A stretch of 64,000 bases of DNA, from NCBI GenBank assembly GCA_963707865.1, contig OY970175.1:144748-208747 (forward strand), in the 5' to 3' direction. A program made the position numbers and the translations under genes. Below are positions 463 through 45,094 of this stretch, piece by piece. The notes under the pieces were generated by a model that did not search any database, was not told the origin of the DNA, and saw only the letters and a list, made by a program, of their open reading frames with translations. Position 1 is the first letter of the stretch, and every line of letters starts with the position of its first letter. The stretch is from an uncultured bacterium (GTDB taxonomy: Bacteria > Patescibacteriota > Minisyncoccia > UBA6257 > 2-01-FULL-56-20).

Positions 463-538
463 ACTATAATATTAGAGCACCTGCCTTACGTTTTTGACAG
501 CATCCATCTTCGCATGATGGCAAAAACGTAAGGCAGAT
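463..538 (+). promoter_or_regulatory. Divergent promoter region: TATAAT at 465-470 (+), and a perfect 15-bp inverted repeat (481-495 / 522-536, 26-nt spacer) that ends 2 nt before the zwf ATG
   Basis: ctgccttacgttttt ... aaaaacgtaaggcag are exact reverse complements. The spacer contains a nested CCATC...GATGG repeat. On the minus strand TAATAT sits 7 nt upstream of the mag ATG, which suggests a leaderless transcript. Confidence 0.4.
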
Positions 539-2971
539 GTGCACAAAATTATGATAGATGAGAGGAAACAAACCATTCCTACCATTCTCGTGGTCTTGGG
601 CGCCACGGGCGACCTTATGGCGAAAAAGATCGTGCCGGCGCTTTTTAACTTGCATACAAAAAAACATCTGCCGCCAAAGTTCAAACTCGTAGGCGTTTCA
701 AGGCGCGCGTGGGGCGACGACGATCTCCGTATACACCTCCGCACCATTCTTAAAGAGAGGGTATCGCGCGCCTCCGCCGCAACCGTACGATCATTCCTTA
801 ATCTCGCCGTGTATCATCGGTTGGCATTTGATTCGCCAAAGGACTACCTAGCGCTCAACGATCTTTTGAGTAAAATTGACGACACGTGGGGTATGTGTGC
901 GAACAAACTTTTTTATCTTTCGGTCCCGCCGCAGTTTTACTCGCTCATCCTTGCCCATCTGCACCGCAGCCATCTGACCGACGGCTGCGGTCCGAACGAG
1001 GGATGGACGCGCGTGATCGTGGAAAAGCCGTTCGGCAACGACGAGAAGAGTGCGAAGGCGCTTGACGCCCAACTTGTAAAGCTCTTCCGTGAGGAACAAG
1101 TTTATCGGATAGACCATTACCTGGCAAAGGAGATGTTGCAGAATATTCTGATGTTCCGGTTCGCGAACGATCTTTTTGAAAGCGAATGGACAAGCCGCAC
1201 GATAGAGCGCGTGCATATCCGCCTGTTTGAGCAGATCGGCGCGGAGGGACGTGGCGCGTTCTACGACCATGTGGGCGCTCTGCAGGACGTGGGCCAGAAC
1301 CATCTTCTGCAAATGCTCGCGCTCATCGCCATGGAGCGGCCCGCGCGGTACGATGCCCACGCGATCCGCCCGCTCCGCGCGGAGCTTTTGAGGTGTCTTG
1401 CCATTCAGACGCCCCGTGAAGCTGCGAAGAACTCGTTCCGTGCGCAATACGACGGCTACCGCTCCGTGCAAGGGATTGGTCCCCGTTCAAAAATCGAAAC
1501 GTACTTTCGGATCAAGGGGTTCCTCTCCGGCGCGCGGTGGGAAGGGATGCCGATCGTCATGGAAAGCGGGAAGCGCCTCGGCGAGCCGCAGAAAGAGATT
1601 GAGATCGTGCTGCGCCACGAACAGCCCTGCCTTTGCGGAGGGAAGGAGCACCATCACAACCGTATTTTCATCAACCTTGAGCCCACGGAGGGGATCACGA
1701 TCAGGTTCCATTCAAAGAAGCCGGGACACACGTTTGAGTTTGAAGAGCGGACATTGAACTTTGACTTCCGGAAATCGATCCGTCGTGCGCAATATACCGA
1801 GGAGTATGAGAAGCTGATCTTGGACTGCATCGCGGGCGACCAGACGCTTTTTGTTTCAAGCGAGGAGATCGCCGCGACGTGGAAGTTCATAGACCCGTTC
1901 ATCATTGCGTGGAAAAAGAACTTGGTCCCGCTACGGCACTATGCGCCGGGCGGCCGTAAGATTGTCGCCGAATCGGCGGCGTTTGATGATGCGGTGGAAA
2001 AAGATGGGATCCTAGCGCTTCCAAAGGAAATAGGAGTTTTTGGGCTTGGGAAGATGGGCGCGAACGTGGCGCGGCAGCTGCGCGATAAAGGATGGCGCAT
2101 CATCGCGGCCAATCGCTCGCCCGAGCCCTTGCAACAATTGGAGGACGAAGATTTTGAAGCGGCGTATTCTCTCGCGGAACTTGTGGCGAAGCTCACGGTG
2201 CCGCGAAGACATTCGCCGCGCGTGATCTGGCTCATGATCACTGCCGGAAAAGGAGTGGACGAATTTCTCTTCGGGACTCGCGGTAAGGACGGCCTTGTAA
2301 AGCATCTCCAAAAAGGTGACATTGTGATAGACGCCGGCAATTCGTTTTTTGAAGACAGCATGCGGCGCGCGAAGCTACTCGGCAAACATGGCATCCGGTT
2401 CATGGACGTGGGTTTCTCGGGAGGCCCGCGCGGCGCGCGCTACGGCGGCTCGCTCATGGTCGGCGGCGACCAGAAAACGTTTGAATATTTAGAGCCGCTC
2501 TTTGCCGACCTCTCCGTGCCCTTGGGCTATGCGTATTTCGGCGATGCGGGCGCAGGCCATTTTGTGAAGATGGTTCACAATGGCATTGAGTACGGCATGA
2601 TGCAGTCCTTAGCGGAAGGTTTCGCGCTCATGAAAAAGTCCCCATTCAAATTAGATCTCGCAAAAGTGGCGCGCGTCTATAACCGCGGCAGTGTCATAGA
2701 GTCGCGTCTTGTCGGGTGGATGGAAGACGCGTTCCGCATTTATGGCAAGGAACTGCATGCGGTATCCGGCACGGTCGCCGCGACCGGCGAGGGTGAATGG
2801 ACCCTAAAGACCGGCCGCAAGTGGCGCGTGAAACTACCTGCAATAGAAGACGCATTCAAATTCCGCATGCGTTCGCAACGCGCGCCGAGCTATATGGGCC
2901 GAATCCTCTCTGCGCTCCGCAACCGCTTCGGTGGTCATGCAGTGGGGAAAAGAAATAAAACAAAAAAATGA
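539..2971 (+). CDS. zwf: Fused glucose-6-phosphate 1-dehydrogenase (N-terminal ~480 aa) and decarboxylating 6-phosphogluconate dehydrogenase, short YqeC/GndA type (C-terminal ~320 aa)
   Basis: N-terminal part has the G6PD fingerprints LVVLGATGDLMAKKIVPALFNL and RIDHYLAKEMLQNILMFRFAN. C-terminal part has the 6PGDH fingerprints GLGKMGANVARQL, IVIDAGNSFFEDS, GFSGGPRGARYGGSLMVGGD and GAGHFVKMVHNGIEYGMMQSLAEG. Single uninterrupted 810-aa ORF. Start could be ATG 539 or ATG 551. Confidence 0.85.
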   Translation: MHKIMIDERKQTIPTILVVLGATGDLMAKKIVPALFNLHTKKHLPPKFKLVGVSRRAWGDDDLRIHLRTILKERVSRASAATVRSFLNLAVYHRLAFDSPKDYLALNDLLSKIDDTWGMCANKLFYLSVPPQFYSLILAHLHRSHLTDGCGPNEGWTRVIVEKPFGNDEKSAKALDAQLVKLFREEQVYRIDHYLAKEMLQNILMFRFANDLFESEWTSRTIERVHIRLFEQIGAEGRGAFYDHVGALQDVGQNHLLQMLALIAMERPARYDAHAIRPLRAELLRCLAIQTPREAAKNSFRAQYDGYRSVQGIGPRSKIETYFRIKGFLSGARWEGMPIVMESGKRLGEPQKEIEIVLRHEQPCLCGGKEHHHNRIFINLEPTEGITIRFHSKKPGHTFEFEERTLNFDFRKSIRRAQYTEEYEKLILDCIAGDQTLFVSSEEIAATWKFIDPFIIAWKKNLVPLRHYAPGGRKIVAESAAFDDAVEKDGILALPKEIGVFGLGKMGANVARQLRDKGWRIIAANRSPEPLQQLEDEDFEAAYSLAELVAKLTVPRRHSPRVIWLMITAGKGVDEFLFGTRGKDGLVKHLQKGDIVIDAGNSFFEDSMRRAKLLGKHGIRFMDVGFSGGPRGARYGGSLMVGGDQKTFEYLEPLFADLSVPLGYAYFGDAGAGHFVKMVHNGIEYGMMQSLAEGFALMKKSPFKLDLAKVARVYNRGSVIESRLVGWMEDAFRIYGKELHAVSGTVAATGEGEWTLKTGRKWRVKLPAIEDAFKFRMRSQRAPSYMGRILSALRNRFGGHAVGKRNKTKK

Positions 2972-3636: not shown

Positions 3637-4957
3637 TATCCTTTTTCCCTTCGGAGATTTTCTCTATATCCTCCAGCAGGAGGATTATAGCAGTCGTCGG
3701 TATTTAAAATGGCTGCCGCGGTTTTTTTTGCGGCGCAACATTCAGGCACGGGATCACCTGCGTTACACGACACGCGCCGGCGCAATCCTTGTGATCGCTC
3801 TTCTGCTTTGGCTTGCGTCGCTTGCGGGAGTGTTTTTCAACCAGTATGCTTGGTCCGCGTGGACGGTCGCGGCAATAGTGTGGTTGCTTGCGGTGCCGAT
3901 GTTCGTACTCGCAGCAAATATTGTTTCTATGCCGCTCTATCTGCCATTCAGGTACGCGCGTATACGCCGGGCCGCAGAAAAGGTGCGTGCGGTGAATGGC
4001 CTGCGCATTGTAACGATCGCGGGAAGTTTTGGTAAGACGACGACGAAGAATTTCCTGTACGAACTTGTGCGGCACCATGCGGCGGTCCAGATGATATCGG
4101 GAAATGTGAACACGCCATTAGGCATTGCGGGATGGATCATGGAACATCTGCGTTCCGATACGGAGATTTTGATCGCGGAGGTAGATGCCTATCGGGCGGG
4201 CGAGATCAGGGAAGGTTGCCGCATTGTGCCTGCCGATGTCGCCATTCTTACAAGCATCGGGCATCAACATATGGAACGTTTCGAGAGTGTTCCGCGCCTG
4301 GCCGCGGCGCTCGGTGAGGTTTTTACCTACGCGAAGCCGGGAGCAAAGTTGCTCGCACCGCCCGACGTTGCGCGCATGTTGGATCCTCTACTCGGCGGGC
4401 GACAAGCGATCGTGGTGAACAAGGAGGATATGACGGGTACGGGTTTGCACCTCTCGACATCAGCCCGTTCCGACCTTGCGCTTGCCGCACGGGCTGCGGA
4501 GCTCTTGGGCGCGCCGGAAAGATTTGTTAAAGATGCAGCCCAAAAGCTCACACTTCCCGACCGCCGCCAAAAGGCGACCGTGTGGCATGGCTACGATTGT
4601 ATTGATGATTCCTATAATATCAGTTTCCCGACCGCGCAGGCGGGAATCGCAGCCGTGGAATCGTTGGCGCGCGAAAAAGGAAAAAAGCTTCTTACGGTCA
4701 CCGCGGGGATTCCGGAGCTCGGACCGGCGGACAAGAACGGGAACGAACGCTTGGGAATGCTGCTTGCAGAAAAAGCCGATCACGTCGTGGTACTCAAAAG
4801 TATATTTGCGCAGGACATCGCCCTCGGCATTCCGGATCAAGAAAAATACACGGTCGTCACAAACCTCAATGCTTTTATTGAAATGGCCCCGAAGCGCTTT
4901 CCGCCGGAGCGGTGGGCGCTTTTACTGGAACCAGAACTCACCGACCTCTATTACTGA
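3572..4957 (+). CDS. Mur-ligase-family protein with an N-terminal multi-pass membrane domain (MurF/CapB-like)
   Basis: About 130 aa of hydrophobic helices, then the Mur ligase P-loop GSFGKTTTK and a central-domain-like block (DAYRAGE...ILTSIGHQHMERF). The true start may be an internal ATG near 3602, because the 5' end overlaps the upstream gene. Confidence 0.65.
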   Translation: MPISKILICSMASSNVLLKAFNILFPFGDFLYILQQEDYSSRRYLKWLPRFFLRRNIQARDHLRYTTRAGAILVIALLLWLASLAGVFFNQYAWSAWTVAAIVWLLAVPMFVLAANIVSMPLYLPFRYARIRRAAEKVRAVNGLRIVTIAGSFGKTTTKNFLYELVRHHAAVQMISGNVNTPLGIAGWIMEHLRSDTEILIAEVDAYRAGEIREGCRIVPADVAILTSIGHQHMERFESVPRLAAALGEVFTYAKPGAKLLAPPDVARMLDPLLGGRQAIVVNKEDMTGTGLHLSTSARSDLALAARAAELLGAPERFVKDAAQKLTLPDRRQKATVWHGYDCIDDSYNISFPTAQAGIAAVESLAREKGKKLLTVTAGIPELGPADKNGNERLGMLLAEKADHVVVLKSIFAQDIALGIPDQEKYTVVTNLNAFIEMAPKRFPPERWALLLEPELTDLYY

Positions 4958-4970
4958 TACTGATCAGCGA

Positions 4971-6098
4971 TCACTGATTGACGAACCGTTCCACGATGTC
5001 GGTCTTGTAATCAAGGTGTAAACGGCTTGCATGTTCCGCGTCTTCCACCGCCTGCAGAATGAGCTCGGAAATCTGCTGTTTGAAGGGGATCCCGCTCGCT
5101 TCCCAAAGGTAGAACGCCATAGAGCCCGGGATGGGGTTCAATTCCGTAAGGTAGAGCTTATGGTCGCTCGCGTACATAAAGTCTGCCCGGATCATGCCTT
5201 TGCCGCGGCATGCGACGAACGCCTTCTTCGCCAGTTCCTGTATTTTTTGCTTCAGGTCATCGTCAATTTTCGCGGGAAGTTCGCGATTGAGGGACGCCAT
5301 GCCTCCCTGCATCTTTTTTCCTCCGCGCTCGTATTTGTCCGCGAAGCTTAAGATTTCCTCGTTTGAAAAAGGCCGTTCTACTTCACTCGCCTCAATATTG
5401 CCGTGCAGGAGCCGCACCGCGCAGTTGTATTCCACGAAAGAGGACAAGTATTTTTCCACAAGGATCTCCTTGTCCATCGCGGCCGCTTCAAGGAGGGATT
5501 TTTCCAGCTCCACCTCCGCGCGGGCGATTTTGATGCCGATGCTTGAACCGAGATGCGCGGGCTTCACGATGACGGGAAGGCCAAGGCGGCCAGTAATTTT
5601 TTTTGCGCACTGTTCGGAACCTGCTTTGATCTCGGACGAAAAAAGGTCCATCCCCGGCACGACGTCAATGCCGGCCCTGCTCACCGTCTCCTTCGTGAGT
5701 TCCTTGTTCATCATGACGACCGATGCTTCCTGGCCGGGGGAGGTGAAGGGGATGCCCACGGCTTCAAGCAGCCCTTGCATGGGGCCGGATTCCCCCTGTC
5801 CGCCGTGCAGCGCGAGGTATGCGGCATAGGGATAGATCTTCCGCAACGTACCTTTTATTTTTATAAAACCTCCGTTCGTGTCCCTGCTAAATGTGAAAGC
5901 CCTCCGCGCCGCAGTGAGAAACTTTCGGCGGTCCCGGAGGCCAGGGATGCAAAGGAATTTCCCCGCCTTGTCTATATAGACCGCAAGCGGTTCATACATT
6001 TCCGTGTCAATGTTTTCTAGGGCTTGAAGGCCTGTCACGACCGAGACCTCGTGCTCCGCCGATACGCCGCCGAAGACCACGAGCACCGATTTTCTCAT
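4971..6098 (-). CDS. ddl: D-alanine--D-alanine ligase
   Basis: N-terminus VLVVFGGVSAEHEVSVVTG and ATP-grasp architecture. 375 aa. Confidence 0.9.
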   Translation of the reverse strand: MRKSVLVVFGGVSAEHEVSVVTGLQALENIDTEMYEPLAVYIDKAGKFLCIPGLRDRRKFLTAARRAFTFSRDTNGGFIKIKGTLRKIYPYAAYLALHGGQGESGPMQGLLEAVGIPFTSPGQEASVVMMNKELTKETVSRAGIDVVPGMDLFSSEIKAGSEQCAKKITGRLGLPVIVKPAHLGSSIGIKIARAEVELEKSLLEAAAMDKEILVEKYLSSFVEYNCAVRLLHGNIEASEVERPFSNEEILSFADKYERGGKKMQGGMASLNRELPAKIDDDLKQKIQELAKKAFVACRGKGMIRADFMYASDHKLYLTELNPIPGSMAFYLWEASGIPFKQQISELILQAVEDAEHASRLHLDYKTDIVERFVNQ

Positions 6099-6135: not shown

Positions 6136-7110
6136 ATGATGCTGGATGACATAAAAAATTATGCGAAGCAGTTTGCATACGAACCGAAGGTAGAAAATGC
6201 CGCGAAGCTGAAGTGGAAGTTCACCAAGTTCGTGGTAATAGGTATGGGCGGGTCACACCTTGCGGCAGATATCATAAAGGCGTGGCACCCGGGGATGGAT
6301 ATCGTTGTTTGGTCAAATTACGGCCTCCCGCCGTTCCGCGAGAAGGATCTTAAAGAGCGGCTCGTCATCGCAAGTTCATACTCCGGCAACACCGAAGAAG
6401 TGATTGACGCCTTTCATGCGGCGCGGGCGAAGCGTCTCTCGGTAGCCGTCATCGCCTCGCGCGGGAAATTGATCGCGCTTGCGCAGAAGTTCAAGCTACC
6501 CTATGTGCAAGTCCCCGATTTTCACGCACAGCCGCGGATGTCCACGGGGCTTATGCTCATGGGAACACTCGCGCTTATAGGAGAGAAGACCTGGATTTGG
6601 GAAGCGCAGGAACTTGCGACCATGCTGCATCCCGTACGAGAGGAGTATCGCGGCCGCGAACTCGCGAAGCGGCTGCACGGATCAGTGCCGGTGATGTACG
6701 CCTCGCTTCGCAACGCCACGGTCGCGTATAACTGGAAAGTAAGGTTCAACGAAACGGGAAAAATTCCCGCATTTTGCAATGTGGTTCCCGAAATGAACCA
6801 TAACGAAATGACGGGTTTTGACGTCAAGGAGCGCACCGCGTCGCTTTCACGCAATCTCCACTTTGTATTTTTAAAAGACGGCGGCGACGATCAACGCATC
6901 ACAAAGCGCATGAGCGTTTTGGAGAAGCTCTACAAAGACCGCGGCTTCAAGGTGGAGGTCGTCCTCCTCCAGGGCAAGAATGAGCTCCATAAGATATTCA
7001 CCGCGCTCAACCTCGCCGACTGGACGGCGTACTACACCGCGAAGCTCTACGGCGTTGAACCCGAACAGGTGCCGATGGTGGAGGAATTCAAGAAGCTCAT
7101 CGGGCGGTAG
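6136..7110 (+). CDS. Bifunctional phosphoglucose/phosphomannose isomerase (SIS-domain, archaeal-type PGI/PMI)
   Basis: IGMGGSHLAADII SIS motif, 324 aa, typical size for PGI/PMI. Confidence 0.7.
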   Translation: MMLDDIKNYAKQFAYEPKVENAAKLKWKFTKFVVIGMGGSHLAADIIKAWHPGMDIVVWSNYGLPPFREKDLKERLVIASSYSGNTEEVIDAFHAARAKRLSVAVIASRGKLIALAQKFKLPYVQVPDFHAQPRMSTGLMLMGTLALIGEKTWIWEAQELATMLHPVREEYRGRELAKRLHGSVPVMYASLRNATVAYNWKVRFNETGKIPAFCNVVPEMNHNEMTGFDVKERTASLSRNLHFVFLKDGGDDQRITKRMSVLEKLYKDRGFKVEVVLLQGKNELHKIFTALNLADWTAYYTAKLYGVEPEQVPMVEEFKKLIGR

Positions 7111-30796: not shown

Positions 30797-31060
30797 TGCC
30801 CCCGTGAGGATTCGAACCTGCGACCATCTCCTTACCATCGGCAGCGAATTGAAAATAAAAGCGTAGCCATTTTGTGTGGGGCATAGTGCCCCCACCAGGA
30901 TTCGAACCTGGGACCATCTCCTTAAAAGGGAGCTGCTCTGCCAACTGAGCTATAGGGGCACTCTGCCCAAAATAGCTACACTTTTATTTTCAATGAGCGA
31001 ACCAATGGGCGAATTCTTATTCGCAAAGGGAGTCAGCTCTCATAACTGAGCTATAGGGGT
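30797..31060 (-). pseudogene. Split, degenerate tRNA-Lys-like gene. Its 5' half (31060-31025) and 3' half (30834-30797) are separated by ~190 nt that contains the intact tRNA-Lys flanked by a 27-bp inverted repeat (30848-30874 vs 30968-30994)
   Basis: 5' half ACCCCTATAGCTCAGTTATGAGAGCTGACTCCCTTT and 3' half TAAGGAGATGGTCGCAGGTTCGAATCCTCACGGGGGCA are near-copies of the inner tRNA-Lys, but with A-C mismatches in the acceptor stem and a 3-bp T-stem. On the minus-strand RNA the flanking repeats pair as 27 bp, and both mismatches become G-U. Confidence 0.45.
30886..30958 (-). tRNA. tRNA-Lys (anticodon UUU), no encoded CCA
   Basis: Minus-strand sequence GCCCCTA-TA-GCTC-AGTTGGCA-GAGC-A-GCTCC-CTTTTAA-GGAGA-TGGTC-CCAGG-TTCGAAT-CCTGG-TGGGGGC-A. 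The acceptor stem is 7 bp including one G-U, the T-arm is canonical, and the anticodon loop is CUUUUAA. Confidence 0.85.
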
Positions 31061-31121
31061 ATTTCGTTGTTATTGTACGGGAAATGTGGGATAGTTTCAA
31101 CTTGTGATAGAATAACAGGAA

Positions 31122-32365: not shown

Positions 32366-32824
32366 ATGGCAACCAGACACTTAATTCGGACCGTGATTCT
32401 CCAGACCCTCTATGAGTGGGATTTTTACAGCCACAAAAAGGACGTGACGGAGATTTTGGAGCGGAACCTCGCCGAATTCGCCCCCGGCATTGATGAACCG
32501 GAGTTCGCGTGGAAAATTTTGAAGGGCGTCGTGGAGCACATAAAGAACATTGACAGTGTGATCACGAAAGCCGCTCCCGAGTGGCCATTGGATAGGATCG
32601 CCATCATTGACCGCAACATCCTGCGTATCGGCCTCTATGAGCTTTTGTATGCTGATCCCGAAGAAGTGCCGCCAAAGGTGGCCATCAACGAATCGATTGA
32701 GCTTGCGAAGAACTACGGTGGGCCGAACGCAGCGCGGTTCGTGAACGGCGTTTTGGGAACGATCTACCGCGAAGTGGGGGAGCGAAAGGCGGTGGACGTA
32801 GAACGTTCCACGCAAAAAAAATGA
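32366..32824 (+). CDS. nusB: Transcription antitermination factor NusB
   Basis: ILQTLYEWDF ... ILRIGLYELLY blocks. 152 aa. Confidence 0.85.
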   Translation: MATRHLIRTVILQTLYEWDFYSHKKDVTEILERNLAEFAPGIDEPEFAWKILKGVVEHIKNIDSVITKAAPEWPLDRIAIIDRNILRIGLYELLYADPEEVPPKVAINESIELAKNYGGPNAARFVNGVLGTIYREVGERKAVDVERSTQKK

Positions 32825-33510
32825 TGGATACTGCATCCTTACAGAAAAAACTCGGAATTTCATTCAAGAACGAAGACCTGTTGACCGAAGCGCTGACTCA
32901 CCGTTCGTACTTGAATGAGTTCCCGAGATGGCGGTTGCCGCACAACGAGCGCCTGGAATATCTTGGCGACGCGGTTTTGGAGTTGCTCGTTTCGGAAGAG
33001 CTTTTCGCAAAATTTCCTGATTATCCCGAAGGGAAGTTGACCGTGCTCCGTGCGGCGCTCGTGAACTATCAGATTTTGGCGCGCATCGCGGAGTCCATCG
33101 ACTTGGATGATTTCATTTTGATGTCGCGCGGTGAACGGAGGGACACTGGCAAGGCGCGCGAGGTCATTCTCGCGAATGCAATTGAGGCCGTGATTGGCGC
33201 GATGTACTTGGACCAGGGGATCGAGAAAGTCCTCGCGTTCGTGAAAAAAAACATTATGAGCAATTTAGAGGATGTGATGAAGACGAAAAGCTACCGGGAC
33301 GCGAAGAGCGAACTGCAGGAAATAGTGCAGGAGAAATTGCGCGTTACGCCGACCTATCGCGTGATAGAAGAGGCAGGCCCCGCGCACAAGCGCGTGTTCA
33401 AAATGGGAGTGTATTTTGGCGAAAAATTCGTGGCTGATGGAGAGGGAGCATCCAAACAGGAAGCCGAGCTTGCGGCGGCGAAGAACGCGCTTAAAAAACG
33501 CCTCCTGTAA
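32821..33510 (+). CDS. rnc: Ribonuclease III
   Basis: RNase III signature ERLEYLGDAVLEL and a C-terminal dsRBD. 229 aa. Confidence 0.9.
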   Translation: MMDTASLQKKLGISFKNEDLLTEALTHRSYLNEFPRWRLPHNERLEYLGDAVLELLVSEELFAKFPDYPEGKLTVLRAALVNYQILARIAESIDLDDFILMSRGERRDTGKAREVILANAIEAVIGAMYLDQGIEKVLAFVKKNIMSNLEDVMKTKSYRDAKSELQEIVQEKLRVTPTYRVIEEAGPAHKRVFKMGVYFGEKFVADGEGASKQEAELAAAKNALKKRLL

Positions 33511-42721: not shown

Positions 42722-43113
42722 AGAACCCGTGCGGAAATGACCGCTGTTTTACAACTGAATAGCAGTAGAGAGTTTTTTAGTTGTCCCAATTTATTCTTTT
42801 TTGGCAACGTTTTTGAGTGATCAAACAATGTTGCGTGGAATTCGTTCGAACCCCTCTATAGAGGGTTTGAATGAAAATTCAAATTCTTTTTAAAGAGGAT
42901 TTGATCCTGGTCCAGGATGAACGCTGGCGGCGTGGATAAGGCATGCAAGTCGAGCGCTTTATTTTTTGAAATTGTTTGCGATTACATCAAGAGCAGTGGA
43001 TGTTAATAAGGAGCGGCGAACGAGTTAGTAACACCTTGGTACGTACCTCAAAGACGGGCACAGCTCGCCGAAAGGCGGGGTAATTCCCGATATTGTCGCA
43101 AGACGAAAGTCGG

Positions 43114-43374
43114 TCCTCTCATTCAGATACTGTTTCGCTTTGGCGTAGCGAATTCTAACCAGATTCGCGACGCGAGGAGCGAAGTGTGCTGCATGTACAC
43201 GAGCGACGAGTAACAAAGAAGCTGGTTAGAATTCGCTACGCCCGAAGGGAAGCTAGCGAATAGCCGATTTCTTTGTCGCTCCTCCTCGAAGTGCACGTGC
43301 ACATCTTCGTCGTCGCTTCGCGAACTCGGCTATTCGCTAGCTTCCAAAGCTGAAACAGTATCTGAGTGAGAGGA
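43114..43374 (+). repeat. 261-nt highly self-complementary expansion segment inside the 16S V2 region
   Basis: Outer stem TCCTCTCATTCAGATACTGTTTC (43114-43136) pairs with GAAACAGTATCTGAGTGAGAGGA (43352-43374). Inner arms include the 19-bp pair CGTAGCGAATTCTAACCAG / CTGGTTAGAATTCGCTACG and the 20-bp pair GGAAGCTAGCGAATAGCCGA / TCGGCTATTCGCTAGCTTCC. No ORF. Confidence 0.6.
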
Positions 43375-44202
43375 CAGACGCTTTGAGATCGGCCTAGGCC
43401 CGATCAGCTAGTTGGTAAGGTAACGGCTTACCAAGGCTATGACCGGTAGGGGAGGTGAGAGCCTGACCCCCAACGACGAGACTGAGACACGGCTCGTACT
43501 CCTACGGGAGGCAGCAGTCAAGAACATTCGACAATGGGCGCAAGCCTGATCGAGCGACACCGCGTGCAGGATGAAGGCCTTCGGGTTGTAAACTGCGGTA
43601 ATATAGTAACAATGCAAATGAGTGCTATATGGAAAGAGGTGGGTAACTACGTGCCAGCACCAGCGGTAAAACGTAGACCTCGAGCGTTATCCGGATTTAT
43701 TGGGCGTAAAGAGCATGTAGGAGGTTTTGCGCGTCTTCTGTTAAAGCCCGGGGCCTAACCCCGGAAGTGCAGGAGATACGGCAGAACTAGAGGAGGTTAG
43801 AGGTGCATGGAACGCACGGTGTAGGGGTGAAATCCGTTGATATCGTGCGGAACACCAAAGGCGAAGGCAGTGCACTGGGACCTTCCTGACTCTGAGATGC
43901 GAAAGCGTGGGGAGCAAAAAGGATTAGATACCCTTGTAGTCCACGCCCTAAACGATGCCTGCTTGGTGTTTCGAGTATCGACCCTCGGAGTGCCGTAGCT
44001 AACGCGTTAAGCAGGCCGCCTGGGAAGTACGAGCGCAAGCTTAAAACTCAAAGGAATAGACGGGGACTCGCACAAGCGGTGGAACATGAGGTTTAATTCG
44101 ACAATAAGCGAGGAACCTTACCAGGGCTTGAAATTCTTGCTGACAGGTGTCCGAAAGGATGCCCTTCTCACAAGGACAGCAAGGACAGGTGTTGCATGGT
44201 TG

Positions 44203-44499
44203 ATTGAATCGACTCCTCTAGGGTCTAGAGGTAACACCCTTCAGTTCGTTCATGTTATGGACTGAAGAAAACTGGCTCATAACGGTGAAGTCCTATTTAA
44301 CAAAGAGTTAATCTTTGAAGAGTAGGATAATACCGTGGGAAGTGTGAACACTGAAATCAGCGTTCGCACCCCGTAGAGACTTTTTCCAAAAGGAAAAGAC
44401 GATAGCTTTTTAGTTGTCGTGAAACGCCAGCCCCAGCGTAATTTAAAAAATTACGGTTGGGTGAAGGTATAGTCCGTACCATTAGTAATAATGGAGTTA
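44203..44499 (+). other. ~297-nt insertion in the 16S between GCATGGTTG and TCGTCAGCTCGT (E. coli position ~1057); intron or expansion segment, no ORF
   Basis: The conserved flanks are contiguous in standard 16S sequences, and here they are separated by ~300 nt of non-rRNA-like sequence. A further ~50-nt extension lies at 44596-44655 in the helix-41 region. Confidence 0.5.
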
Positions 44500-45094
44500 T
44501 ATGGTCGTCAGCTCGTAGTTTGAACCGTTCCCTTAAGTGGGGTAACGAGCGCAACCCCTATCGAGTGTTACAAGTGTCACTCGGAACTGCCCAGCCCTGA
44601 GATGGAGAAAAAATTTCTTAGGTCAATTAGAAATTATTTCGCCTTTTCCGGGCTGGGAGGAAGGAGGGGATGACGTCAAATCCGCATGGCCCTTTGATGC
44701 CCTGGGCTACACTCGTGTTACAATGGCAGCGACAATGGGTCGCCAACCCGCAAGGGGGAGCTAATCCCATCAAACGTTGCCTCAGTTCGGATTGAGGGCT
44801 GCAACCTGCCCTCATGAAGCCGGAATCGCTAGTAATCGCGAATCAGCCACGTCGCGGTGAATACGTTCTCGAGTCCTGTACTCACTGCCCGTCACTGCAA
44901 GGAAGCCGGGAATATCTGAAATCTCCTTTTGGGGATAAGGGTAAGCTCGGTGACATGGCAGAAGTCGTAACAAGGCACGCGTAGCGGAAGCTGTGCGTGG
45001 ATCAATTAAACTAAGTCGATAACGCGCGGTTGCGCGTTAAGGTTGGGGCAACTAAAAAGCTCTTTGTGAATGTGATATAATAAGTATTACGAGC

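Follow-up and report, generated by a model that had tools for sequence, protein, structure and literature searches.

What could be the reason for a bacterial tRNA gene to be broken within its anticodon loop by an element that carries a second, complete copy of the same gene? The question is raised by a locus within a 64,000-nucleotide stretch of DNA (the whole stretch analysed, hereafter the window) from the Patescibacteria, uncultivated bacteria with very small cells, where the minus strand from 31060 to 30797 reads as the 5′ half of a tRNA-Lys, an insert of 190 nt and the corresponding 3′ half, the insert separating anticodon-loop positions 35 and 36 of the outer tRNA-Lys. As shown below, the locus belongs to a family of “nested” tRNA-Lys genes, conserved in the Patescibacteria, in which a structured element of ~180–200 nt sits at 35/36 and bears a second complete tRNA-Lys at its tip. 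A preliminary description of the locus had given the minus-strand order as 5′ half, complete tRNA-Lys(UUU) and 3′ half, and every element was found where it had been placed. It had also considered the arrangement to be new, in agreement with our limited literature and Rfam searches, which returned no description of a matching tRNA intron or mobile element. In genome annotations the arrangement is invisible because standard annotation reports the inner tRNA alone.

Followed on the minus strand, to which all the coordinates below refer, the unit is preceded by a sigma-70-like promoter (TTGAAA-17-TACAAT, 31072–31100; 10 of 12 matches) that ends 11 nt upstream of the outer 5′ half. This is the sole promoter-like site found in a scan of the unit; the motif is conserved in L001 (also as L008), a close relative, and in L007, L010 and L022 similar hexamers can be read directly ahead of the outer half. 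The conserved, −35-like sequence ATTGAAAAT was considered as an internal promoter for the inner tRNA and rejected, since in no member is it accompanied by a −10 at 16–18 nt. The outer 5′ half (31025–31060; positions 1–35) ends with CUCCCUUU and the first inserted base opens a small hairpin (GCGAAU-AAGA-AUUCGC, 31009–31024), followed by the 5′ strands of a 7-bp basal stem (CCAUUGG, 31002–31008), of a conserved 7 × 6 internal loop (UUCGCUC, 30995–31001) and of a 27-bp upper stem (30968–30994). The leader strand GGCAGAGU (30960–30967) then forms, with the trailer, an 8-bp helix that prolongs the inner acceptor stem, U-1 being paired with A73. The intact inner tRNA-Lys(UUU) (30887–30959), whose CCA is not encoded, is called by ARAGORN and scores 69.2 bits with the Rfam tRNA model. 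Beyond it lie the trailer strand CUAUGCCC with a 4-nt linker (30875–30886), the 3′ strand of the upper stem (30848–30874), that of the conserved internal loop (UCGCUG, 30842–30847, which together with the preceding U reads UUCGCU, like the 5′ strand) and that of the basal stem (CCGAUGG, 30835–30841), whose final base is the last inserted base. The outer 3′ half (30797–30834) comprises positions 36–73, and its ending CCTCACGGGGGCA is common to the window and to the trailing 3′ half of L027. The two other tRNAs of the window (Ala and Leu) are not nested. An rnc gene, matching Ribonuclease_3 and dsrm (32821–33510), is located 2 kb from the nest.

The likeness of the outer halves to tRNA-Lys, which might have been coincidental, is not: the inner tRNA and the halves are true paralogues, with an identity between outer and inner of 90% over 39 nt for the 3′ halves and of 77% over 35 nt for the 5′ halves. 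Joined at CTTT/TAAGG (the slash marking the break), they re-create the loop CUUUUAA, as had been predicted, and ARAGORN at its default settings calls the product tRNA-Lys(UUU). Run with its intron and pseudogene options on the locus as it stands, the same program did not find the outer gene in place and returned nothing but the inner tRNA and a single spurious call in antisense. The decay of the outer copy is equally real; the 5′ half displays G1A, an altered D-loop and one surplus base in the segment linking the D stem to the anticodon stem, and the 3′ half C66 and a T stem reading GCAGG/CCUCA, with A–C mismatches at 1:72 and 7:66 and two broken T-stem pairs.

The spacers on either side of the inner tRNA, initially estimated at ~75 nt each, measure 65 and 52 nt. 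The two 27-nt arms that they contain (30994–30968 and 30874–30848) are 93% complementary, and both exceptions pair as G–U on the minus-strand transcript, precisely as had been reported. The stem said to enclose the inner tRNA does consist of these 27 bp, but the helix is longer than originally described, being completed by the 7-bp basal stem (CCATTGG/CCGATGG, with one further G–U), the 16-nt hairpin and the 8-bp leader/trailer helix. When the 276-nt RNA is folded the stem forms, with a calculated energy of −116.9 kcal/mol (z = −7.3) that none of 200 shuffled sequences equalled, and the point of insertion becomes a three-way junction of anticodon stem, hairpin and basal stem, connected by the linkers CUUU and UAA.

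Is the locus, then, an accident of a single genome? The comparative data indicate the opposite, the layout being present in at least 12 independent loci. Patescibacteria genomes and metagenomes yielded 12 distinct full nests, of both the UUU and the CUU isoacceptor, in addition to two half-collapsed forms (L024 and L027, which retain the tRNA, the 3′ spacer and the 3′ half alone) and one locus with repeated shells (L018), having 2.4 copies of the 5′ half with its spacer and at least 5.6 copies of the 3′ half with its spacer. L007 and L010 were found by a scan keyed solely on the tRNA-Lys halves, L016–L022 come from a metagenome scan and L026 from synteny sampling; L009, a genome-scan match, was discarded as a chance succession of a tRNA-Arg and a tRNA-Lys(CUU). 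Regardless of the isoacceptor, the split falls at 35/36 in all 12 loci, and the inner isoacceptor is always the same as the outer one. In the relatives L007, L016, L020, L022 and L010 the outer halves are perfect tRNA halves. The nests share a syntenic position, after dnaJ and beside a zinc-ribbon gene, at which the close relatives L002, L025, L028, L029 and L030 have a plain, uninterrupted tRNA-Lys. In L002 and L028 the plain tRNA-Lys is immediately adjoined by a gene for a LAGLIDADG endonuclease, and a large serine recombinase is encoded near the plain gene of L025. The succession of 5′ half, complete gene and 3′ half, with an identical break nucleotide in 12 loci, distinguishes the nests from a simple tandem tRNA duplication or a pseudogene, whereas a foldback duplication, one of three readings proposed at the outset, is unsupported because the tRNA copies are direct repeats and the spacers alone are inverted.

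Strong covariation was found in every helix of the insert. Both sides have changed in 26 of its 56 pairs, a number reached by none of 500 shuffles; these changes affect five of the seven pairs of the basal stem (helix 2) and eight of 16 in the upper stem (helix 3). Paired cells make up 95.8% of the nest alignment as against 42–49% in slid controls, and an independent prediction by RNAalifold arrives at this fold too, with 28 compensatory pairs. The 5′ hairpin stands at the start of the insert in 12 of 12 nests, with sequences that differ and are each self-complementary, and L007 folds as a perfect double cloverleaf. As for the internal loop, UUCGCU is conserved on both of its strands, and the 5′ strand UUCGCUC is identical in all four nests found by a pattern from which the loop had been left out (the window's own clade, as L008, together with L007 and L010) and also in the synteny-sampled L026. 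Between the window and L016 the flanks are 45–46% identical, i.e., at the random level, whereas the 5′ and 3′ spacers are 85% and 70% identical, respectively. The case for selection of pairing in the stems is very strong, and the nest family represents a well-supported new RNA structure with 26–28 covarying pairs and conserved loops. The narrower argument, in which the two G–U pairs are taken as proof that the minus-strand RNA is under selection, is weak at the level of the family, even though the selection of pairing as such stands. Inspection of the stems (untabulated) gives the impression that A–C and C–A mismatches, which correspond to G–U on the other strand, are about as common as G–U. 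The G–U versus A–C counts were tried as a guide to the strand that folds and proved uninformative.

Which of the two copies does the work? The stems of the inner tRNA are intact in 12 of 12 nests, whereas among the outer copies six are perfect tRNAs and six are defective (window, L001, L026, L017, L019 and L021; Fisher p = 0.07 for inner versus outer). The outer copy of L026 has U36C and a deletion, and those of L017, L019 and L021 have extra insertions in the D and T loops. Comparison of the window with L001 shows inner tRNAs identical at 73 of 73 positions, outer halves 92% and 87% identical and flanks 85–87% identical; since the identity of the outer halves is close to that of the flanks, the outer copy drifts at an approximately neutral rate in this clade. 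On the other hand, in L010 the outer and inner copies differ by three compensated pairs (6:67, 7:66 and 49:65) and in L021 by one compensated D-stem pair and two wobble-preserving changes, which suggests either that the outer copy is under selection or that the inner one has been imported from a foreign source, and in L016 it is the inner copy that bears a damaging-looking change (U33G), the outer one being perfect.

The explanation that we favor, while giving it slightly less than an even chance, is that an intervening element interrupts tRNA-Lys and at the same time supplies its replacement, the unit being transcribed from the outer promoter, the inner tRNA being processed from the helix and the outer shell being kept similar, or lost, by recombination. 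A full spare copy in the insert solves the problem posed by the disruption of an essential tRNA-Lys gene. The whole unit would give rise to one precursor from the promoter of the outer gene, in which the two spacers would zip into an interrupted helix of ~40 bp and thereby keep the duplicated halves in register, outer with outer and inner with inner. The helix would present the inner pre-tRNA for release by a double-strand-specific cut of the RNase III type, a processing of the stem that had been envisaged from the beginning and is plausible, and RNase P, 3′ trimming and CCA addition would then act on the inner tRNA. The latter would be the working tRNA-Lys, whereas the outer halves would be the remains of the interrupted original gene, presumably dispensable in this genome. 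Recombination between the direct repeats constituted by outer and inner halves may homogenize the copies by gene conversion and may likewise multiply the shells, as in L018, or collapse the nest stepwise to a plain gene, with the half nests L024 and L027 as likely intermediates. Among the three readings first proposed, that of an intron-like, tRNA-carrying element that invaded the anticodon loop is the one best supported by the comparative data, even if overall the support is partial.

Several features do not sit easily with this explanation. The −1:73 pairing prolongs the acceptor stem and, on RNase P and RNase Z substrates, should hinder end maturation. Moreover, the covarying junction hairpin and basal stem, and the conserved UUCGCU, are not obviously needed for the mere release of an inner tRNA. 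The six perfect outer copies and the compensated differences of L010 and L021 point to selection on the outer copy or to a foreign origin of the inner one, the damaging-looking U33G of L016 has struck the inner copy and not the outer, and it is not explained why a structure so easily deleted should have persisted for so long.

A second possibility is that the insert is an intron of a new, non-group-I type, which would excise itself or be removed by an endonuclease and a ligase that recognize both the three-way junction and the conserved symmetric loop. Two tRNA-Lys would in that case derive from each transcript, so that either copy could decay in a given lineage, and the perfect outer copies, L010, L021 and L016 speak for it; the much greater conservation of the spacers compared to the flanks is also in keeping with this idea. 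In addition, group I introns of Patescibacteria tRNAs are enriched at 35/36 (PMC13011429), U is the final base of the 5′ exon in 12 of 12 nests (CUUU or CUCU), the insert ends in G in nine of 12 and the hairpin and basal stem, both of which covary, place the two junctions side by side. We nevertheless regard it as rather unlikely. The last inserted base is A in three of 12 nests (L010, L020 and L022), the non-tRNA part amounts to merely ~117 nt and neither a group I core nor any other Rfam ribozyme emerges even at E ≤ 10; RF00028 gave no match at the gathering score and stayed silent when the threshold was relaxed to E ≤ 10 for the window region and to E ≤ 1 for seven other nests, and Rfam searches of the insert (group I, ribozymes and others) returned no matching family. 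A bulge–helix–bulge (two 3-nt bulges, 4 bp apart), sought in the MFE and consensus folds and by inspection, is absent, and the start of the 3′ exon cannot pair with that of the insert (folds and inspection). Damage that is much commoner in outer than in inner copies, the nearly neutral drift of the outer copy in the window clade and the D- and T-loop insertions of L017, L019 and L021 weigh in the same direction. The compensated differences of L010 bear as well on another possibility, namely that of an active non-autonomous mobile element that targets the tRNA-Lys anticodon loop at the DNA or single-stranded DNA level and spares its host by means of the spare tRNA-Lys; indeed, inner and outer tRNAs that differ and are each self-consistent are what one expects of foreign cargo in a resident gene. 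Such an element might pass between lineages when DNA that has been taken up recombines via the tRNA-half homology arms, or with the aid of a trans-acting nuclease or recombinase, and could re-insert into its own cargo, as the several shells of L018 and the third, more decayed outermost 3′ half that follows the L010 nest with its own spacer would suggest. Full nests, half nests and plain genes are patchily interleaved among close relatives, both Lys isoacceptors are hit at the same position, and the stem mismatches are, by inspection, without apparent strand bias, as expected if either DNA strand folds; the LAGLIDADG and serine recombinase genes near plain tRNA-Lys genes also fit.

Quite a number of observations, however, make mobility improbable, and more so than splicing. 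The tRNA is the only gene of the 190-nt insert, which has no integrase or recombinase gene, and no protein gene, recombinases included, was found to recur beside the nests. Target-site duplications and symmetric terminal repeats are lacking, and the motif occurs once in the 64-kb window, without enrichment. IMG/VR, the INPHARED phages and the PLSDB plasmids contained no copy of the nest; the loop-pair pattern found in IMG/VR four random matches without tRNAs, two looser patterns gave noise, and BLAST against phages and plasmids matched the tRNA part alone, over at most 36% of the query. Furthermore, the shared syntenic position and a spacer similarity that tracks relatedness fit vertical descent with losses, unequal crossing-over accounts for the differing shell numbers of L018 better than repeated symmetric insertion does, and the inner isoacceptor never departs from the outer one. 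As to the view that a local duplication, tandem or foldback, has left the nest behind as debris without function, its stem being a chance palindrome, the decayed outer halves of the window and the fact that direct repeats do recombine in this family (L018) speak for it, but it is hardly credible in the light of a split nucleotide that is the same in 12 loci and two isoacceptors, of 26 covarying pairs and conserved loops that persist where the flanks are randomized, of the z-score of the fold and of an order of parts that no simple tandem or inverted duplication can produce.

To our knowledge, bacterial tRNA genes are thought to be interrupted by group I introns alone and, very rarely, by group II introns; the tRNA-Lys anticodon loop of many Patescibacteria is instead occupied by a distinct, conserved and structured intervening sequence that is not group I. 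If, in line with the favored explanation of an interrupting element that brings its own replacement, the insert is merely processed, the nests represent a new tRNA precursor architecture and a natural system in which gene conversion, unequal crossing-over and stepwise loss can be followed. If it is spliced or mobile, they add a novel kind of intron or mobile element to a phylum whose stable RNAs are already known to contain unexplained insertions. That they constitute a new class of bacterial tRNA intervening element, truly removed from RNA or truly moving, with the junction and the twofold-symmetric UUCGCU loop as its recognition site, is doubtful; were it so, each transcript would supply two tRNAs, or re-insertion into its own cargo would build the nested shells, and bacteria would possess, in this family, an equivalent of the disrupted-tRNA systems of archaea.

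How do the nests compare with known systems? Genomic islands residing in tRNA genes leave a direct repeat of the 3′ part of the tRNA, and the half nests L024 and L027 resemble such junction repeats; in the nests, however, the 5′ half is duplicated too, the spacers are complementary, no integrase is present and the scale is that of tens of bases, not of kilobases. Unlike a MITE or an insertion sequence, the nest has asymmetric ends (a hairpin at the 5′ end alone), no duplication and one copy in the 64-kb window, and unlike split or permuted tRNA genes it has its halves in cis, in normal order and 190 nt apart. Disrupted archaeal tRNAs contain bulge–helix–bulge introns or, in Nanoarchaeum, are split and joined through complementary extensions, the position being 37/38. 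Common to these and to the nests are tRNA halves held by a long helix of extra sequence at an anticodon-loop break and the occurrence of several insertions per gene (D, anticodon and T loops in L019 and L021), whereas the nests are bacterial, have no bulge–helix–bulge at the junction, are broken at 35/36 instead of 37/38 and have their halves in cis around a complete tRNA (for archaeal disrupted tRNA genes see the reviews PMC4090602 and PMC3978253).

Closer in phylogenetic terms are the group I introns found at 35/36 of Patescibacteria tRNA genes for Asn, Asp, Met, Phe, Tyr and Thr, reported in a study that also ran an in vitro self-splicing assay with GTP and Mg (Nakagawa et al. 2026, PMC13011429). 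With these introns the nests share the phylum, the kind of host gene, the site, the final U of the 5′ exon and the lack of an endonuclease gene inside. They differ from these introns in having no group I core, a non-tRNA part of ~117 nt and a terminal G that is not invariant, in carrying a whole tRNA, in residing in tRNA-Lys, which is absent from that list of hosts, and in that their splicing is putative. In the tRNA-dependent lysogeny of actinobacteriophages (Guerrero-Bustamante and Hatfull 2024, PMC10865867), an entire prophage, which has a tyrosine integrase and a common core of ~10 bp, disrupts tRNA-Lys-TTT without rebuilding it and supplies an isotype-matched tRNA from elsewhere in the phage. 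The disruption of an essential host tRNA gene and its replacement by an isotype-matched tRNA brought by the insert are found in both cases, whereas the nest measures 190 nt, has the tRNA as its sole gene, possesses a conserved fold, is probably co-transcribed with the disrupted gene and has no core, no repeat being shared by its junctions CUUU/G... and ...GG/UAAGG. For the UUCGCU loop pair we know of no counterpart. Lastly, in the RNase III processing stems and intervening sequences of rRNA the flanks of a stable RNA pair into a long helix and a helical extension replaces a loop; such devices are known to us for rRNA and not for tRNA. With them the nest has in common a flanking helix of at least 20 bp (27 + 7 + 8 bp, covarying) and the presence of an rnc gene, but differs in that the RNA enclosed by the helix is a second copy of the interrupted gene.

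On the minus strand of the window a sigma-70-like promoter (TTGAAA-17-TACAAT, 31100-31072) located by a promoter scan ends 11 nt ahead of the 36-nt 5' half of a tRNA-Lys gene (31060-31025, ending CUCCCUUU), which is followed by an insert of 190 nt (31024-30835) and then by the 38-nt 3' half of the same outer gene (30834-30797, beginning UAAGGAGA). The insert is composed, in this order, of a 16-nt hairpin (GCGAAU-AAGA-AUUCGC), a 7-nt strand (CCAUUGG), the loop strand UUCGCUC, a 27-nt arm noticed already in the preliminary description, an 8-nt leader (GGCAGAGU), an intact tRNA-Lys(UUU) (30959-30887; ARAGORN, and 69.2 bits with the Rfam tRNA model) whose gene sequence does not contain CCA, and finally the complementary trailer, the second arm, the loop strand UCGCUG and CCGAUGG. 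Thus, the reading of the minus strand, ARAGORN and Rfam all support the earlier claim that an intact tRNA-Lys lies within a split and decayed tRNA-Lys-like gene, an arrangement hereafter referred to as a nest.

The repeat finder returned the two 27-nt segments as an inverted repeat, 93% complementary as had been proposed, together with a leader/trailer repeat of 14 nt and with similarities between inner and outer tRNA amounting to 90% over 39 nt for the 3' halves and 77% over 35 nt for the 5' halves. The RNA of the whole unit has a minimum free energy of -116.9 kcal/mol, 7.3 s.d. below that of shuffled sequences; the postulated stem is therefore found in the fold but its length had been underestimated, the helix extending well beyond 27 bp, whereas the spacers, said to be ~75 nt each, are in fact 65 and 52 nt long. 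When joined as CUUU|UAAGG, the outer halves restore a product matched by ARAGORN as tRNA-Lys(UUU), and the decay attributed to this copy is real, consisting of four mispairs (A-C at 1:72 and 7:66, and two broken T-stem pairs) and one extra base after the D stem.

The search for the same locus in related genomes, advocated in the preliminary description, was rewarding. The closest relative, OY970382.1 (a chromosome of 887,956 bp, with a flanking protein 87% identical), carries the same nest at the identical position. When a single genome from each species was scanned for the two tRNA-Lys half sequences at a distance of 170-200 nt, with no use made of the insert sequence, four loci were obtained, namely this relative, one chance match and two more nests, L007 (Paceibacterota) and L010 (Candidatus Liptonbacteria). 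All nests recovered in this way have in common the hairpin, a basal stem of 7 bp, UUCGCUC and (U)UCGCUG as loop strands, an upper stem rich in A/U and the leader/trailer helix. Metagenomes were scanned with a pattern of both loop strands, spaced by 125-155 nt, and a subsequent TAA; the nine loci detected are all true nests and seven of them are new, two being located in tRNA-Lys(CUU) genes with the same break (CUCU|UAAGG). Relatives collected blind to the nest through the zinc-ribbon gene, plus locus L002 reached through ydjM, comprised one full nest (L026), two half nests lacking the 5' half and consisting of the tRNA followed by 3' spacer and 3' half (L024 and L027), and five plain tRNA-Lys loci (L002, L025, L028, L029 and L030). 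Altogether 12 distinct full nests are known, always at the same syntenic location, and their occurrence in independent assemblies (NCBI, ENA, JGI) excludes an assembly artefact.

In the window this location is bordered on one side by dnaK, a membrane protein gene, dnaJ and the gene of a YdjM-family hydrolase, and on the other by those of a zinc-ribbon membrane protein, RNase HII, L32, NusB, RNase III (2 kb from the unit) and SMC; homologues of the flanking proteins bear Patescibacteria names (Minisyncoccia and others). At two plain loci (L002:5538-6380 and L028:1662-2465) an ORF for a LAGLIDADG_3 endonuclease, possibly a free-standing homing enzyme directed at the tRNA-Lys locus, begins 1-2 nt past the tRNA-Lys 3' end and lies between this gene and the zinc-ribbon gene. 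At a third (L025:678-2015) the gene of a large serine recombinase (Resolvase, Recombinase and Zn_ribbon_recom domains) is found ~0.85 kb from the tRNA-Lys, which hints at an integration hot spot in this neighbourhood. In L030 the RNase III apparently occupies two ORFs (3648-5315), one fused to NusB domains, and the SMC gene contains an intein with a LAGLIDADG domain, while in nest locus L016 a weak tRNA-like match (6906-6968; 27.4 bits, just below the Rfam threshold) adjoining a tRNA-Ala (6979-7049) may be a decayed tRNA copy. Within the window, the 16S rRNA match at 42889-45012 covers 2124 nt versus the 1533 nt of the model, implying ~590 nt of insertions; 16S rRNA genes longer than the model are usual in Patescibacteria, and no group I intron exceeding the Rfam gathering score was found anywhere in the window.

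The pattern of substitutions among 11 aligned nests indicates that the structure of the insert is under selection. Indeed, in the proposed structure 95.8% of the cells are paired, compared with 42-49% when the partners are slid by 1-3 columns, and both sides have changed in 26 of 56 pairs, as opposed to 11.5 +/- 2 upon shuffling, a value of 26 being reached in none of 500 shuffles. These both-side changes concern 5/7 pairs of the basal stem, 8/16 of the upper stem and 7/16 of the leader/trailer plus inner acceptor helix, six of the latter falling within the nine leader/trailer pairs. RNAalifold, supplied with no structure, reproduces this fold, counting 28 compensatory pairs and adding two C-G pairs within the conserved loop. 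Every member has a 5' hairpin, whose sequence varies but is invariably self-complementary; the hairpin and the basal stem, both conserved, set the two exon junctions side by side. The hexamer UUCGCU occurs on both loop strands, conferring twofold symmetry on the loop, and a second loop, in which UUGU faces CGGAA, is kept in most members. In a comparison of the window with L016, identity is 45-46% in the flanks (i.e., at random level) versus 85% for the 5' spacer and 70% for the 3' spacer. The two G-U pairs previously taken as a sign of the folding strand lose this value: on inspection of the family stems, G-U and A-C mismatches seem about equally frequent, so that these pairs alone do not identify that strand. 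The natural candidate is the sense RNA, in view of the single promoter, the sense of the tRNA and a helix that runs on into the acceptor stem.

The stems of the inner tRNA are perfect in 12 of 12 nests, the one departure being a G at position 33 in L016, where U33 is universal in tRNA. The outer copy is a perfect tRNA in six nests (L007, whose fold is a flawless double cloverleaf, L010, L016, L018, L020 and L022) and defective in the window and in five others, through an extra base and G73 in L001, the window's closest relative, U36C and an acceptor-strand deletion in L026, and extra hairpins inserted into the D loop, the T loop or both in L017, L019 and L021 (outer 6/12 vs inner 1/12, Fisher p = 0.07). 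The structured D-loop insertions of the outer shells (20 nt in L019, with outer halves at ~1183-1501; ~50 nt in L021, nest region 520-980, minus strand) have homologous ends (CYTGYCTGCCGG...AGGCAGG), and those near 56/57 of the T loop measure ~33 nt in the outermost shell of L010 (4413-4480), ~75 nt in the outer 3' half of L017 and ~165 nt in L021; inner tRNAs never contain D- or T-loop insertions. The window and L001 agree at 73/73 positions of the inner tRNA, compared with an identity of 87-92% for the outer halves and 85-87% for the flanks; since outer halves and flanks vary alike, the outer copy appears free of tRNA-like constraint in this clade, in which, judging from sequence, the inner tRNA must be the working copy.

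Within a lineage, inner and outer halves usually have the same lineage-specific states (D-loop variants; C34 of the CUU genes), implying gene conversion or recent re-duplication. Locus L018 (13120-13901) contains tandem arrays of nest shells, with 5' half plus spacer repeated 2.4 times (period 103, 100% identity) and 3' half plus spacer at least 5.6 times (period 85, 95% identity), the latter array continuing past the end of the fetched locus; the outermost 5' remnant is decayed and ends CTCT. As the two sides differ in copy number, unequal crossing-over between direct repeats is the likely cause. A third, outermost spacer and 3' half, also decayed, is found in L010. Half nests would be the product expected from recombination between outer and inner 5' halves, and a plain tRNA-Lys gene would be the end point of nest loss. 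The outer 3'-half ending CCTCACGGGGGCA of the window (30797-30809) recurs unchanged in the 3' half that trails L027 (2385-2397), a fairly distant half nest, and must accordingly be of long standing and not the result of recent random damage; the inner-type ending present instead in L001 suggests an old outer-specific allele, probably erased there by gene conversion.

The lone promoter upstream of the outer half, the continuity of the structured unit and the conserved helix around an intact tRNA form the basis of the favoured mechanism, in which the whole unit would be transcribed as one precursor, pairing of the spacers would stop each duplicated half from engaging the wrong partner, and a double-strand-specific nuclease, possibly the RNase III encoded 2 kb away, would cut the helix. 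RNase P, 3' trimming and CCA addition, the latter because CCA is not encoded, would then complete the inner tRNA, leaving the outer halves, in the window genome, as presumable by-products. The conserved UUCGCU loop pair and the junction hairpin are, in our view, the best hint of a specific protein or of an additional reaction.

Two rival explanations, that the outer copy is truly spliced by some other route and that the element moves horizontally with foreign cargo, are both alive. They draw strength from L010, where both tRNAs are perfect and three pairs, all fully compensated, distinguish outer from inner, and from L021, whose outer copy, despite two further insertions, displays a D-stem change that is compensated and two acceptor changes that preserve wobble pairing. 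Further points in their favour are the conserved hairpin and basal stem, which bring the exon junctions together, and the break at 35/36 after a U, a site shared with group I introns that were recently reported from tRNA-Asn and tRNA-Asp of Patescibacteria (PMC13011429). Against splicing, the insert matches no ribozyme model, its terminal G is not invariant, a bulge-helix-bulge is absent and decay falls preferentially on the outer copies. Active mobility, for its part, is at odds with an insert that contains no protein gene and has no gene recurring beside it, with the absence of target duplications, the single copy in the window, the constant syntenic location and the lack of copies in viral, phage and plasmid collections.

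The nest is a real, conserved way to organize a bacterial tRNA gene and, as far as can be told, one so far undescribed; as the preliminary description had surmised, no account of nested tRNA genes was found in open-access papers and bioRxiv, a search of incomplete coverage that offers absence of evidence only. In the window genome the comparisons indicate that the inner gene is the functional tRNA-Lys and the shell around it a relic in decay, whereas the architecture conserved throughout the family suggests a function or mechanism beyond current understanding. Compared with known systems, the insert has the 35/36 site and the preceding U of group I introns but not their defining features, and the nest likewise lacks those of bulge-helix-bulge introns, integrase-borne islands, MITE/IS elements, split or permuted tRNAs and tandem duplicates. 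In formal terms it does conform to an RNase III-type processing stem, although no such stem is known around a tRNA nested in its own gene. The nearest published idea is tRNA-dependent lysogeny, in which a phage makes up for its disruption of the host tRNA-Lys-TTT gene with a copy of its own (PMC10865867); the nest shares this logic, but within 190 nt and without an enzyme gene.
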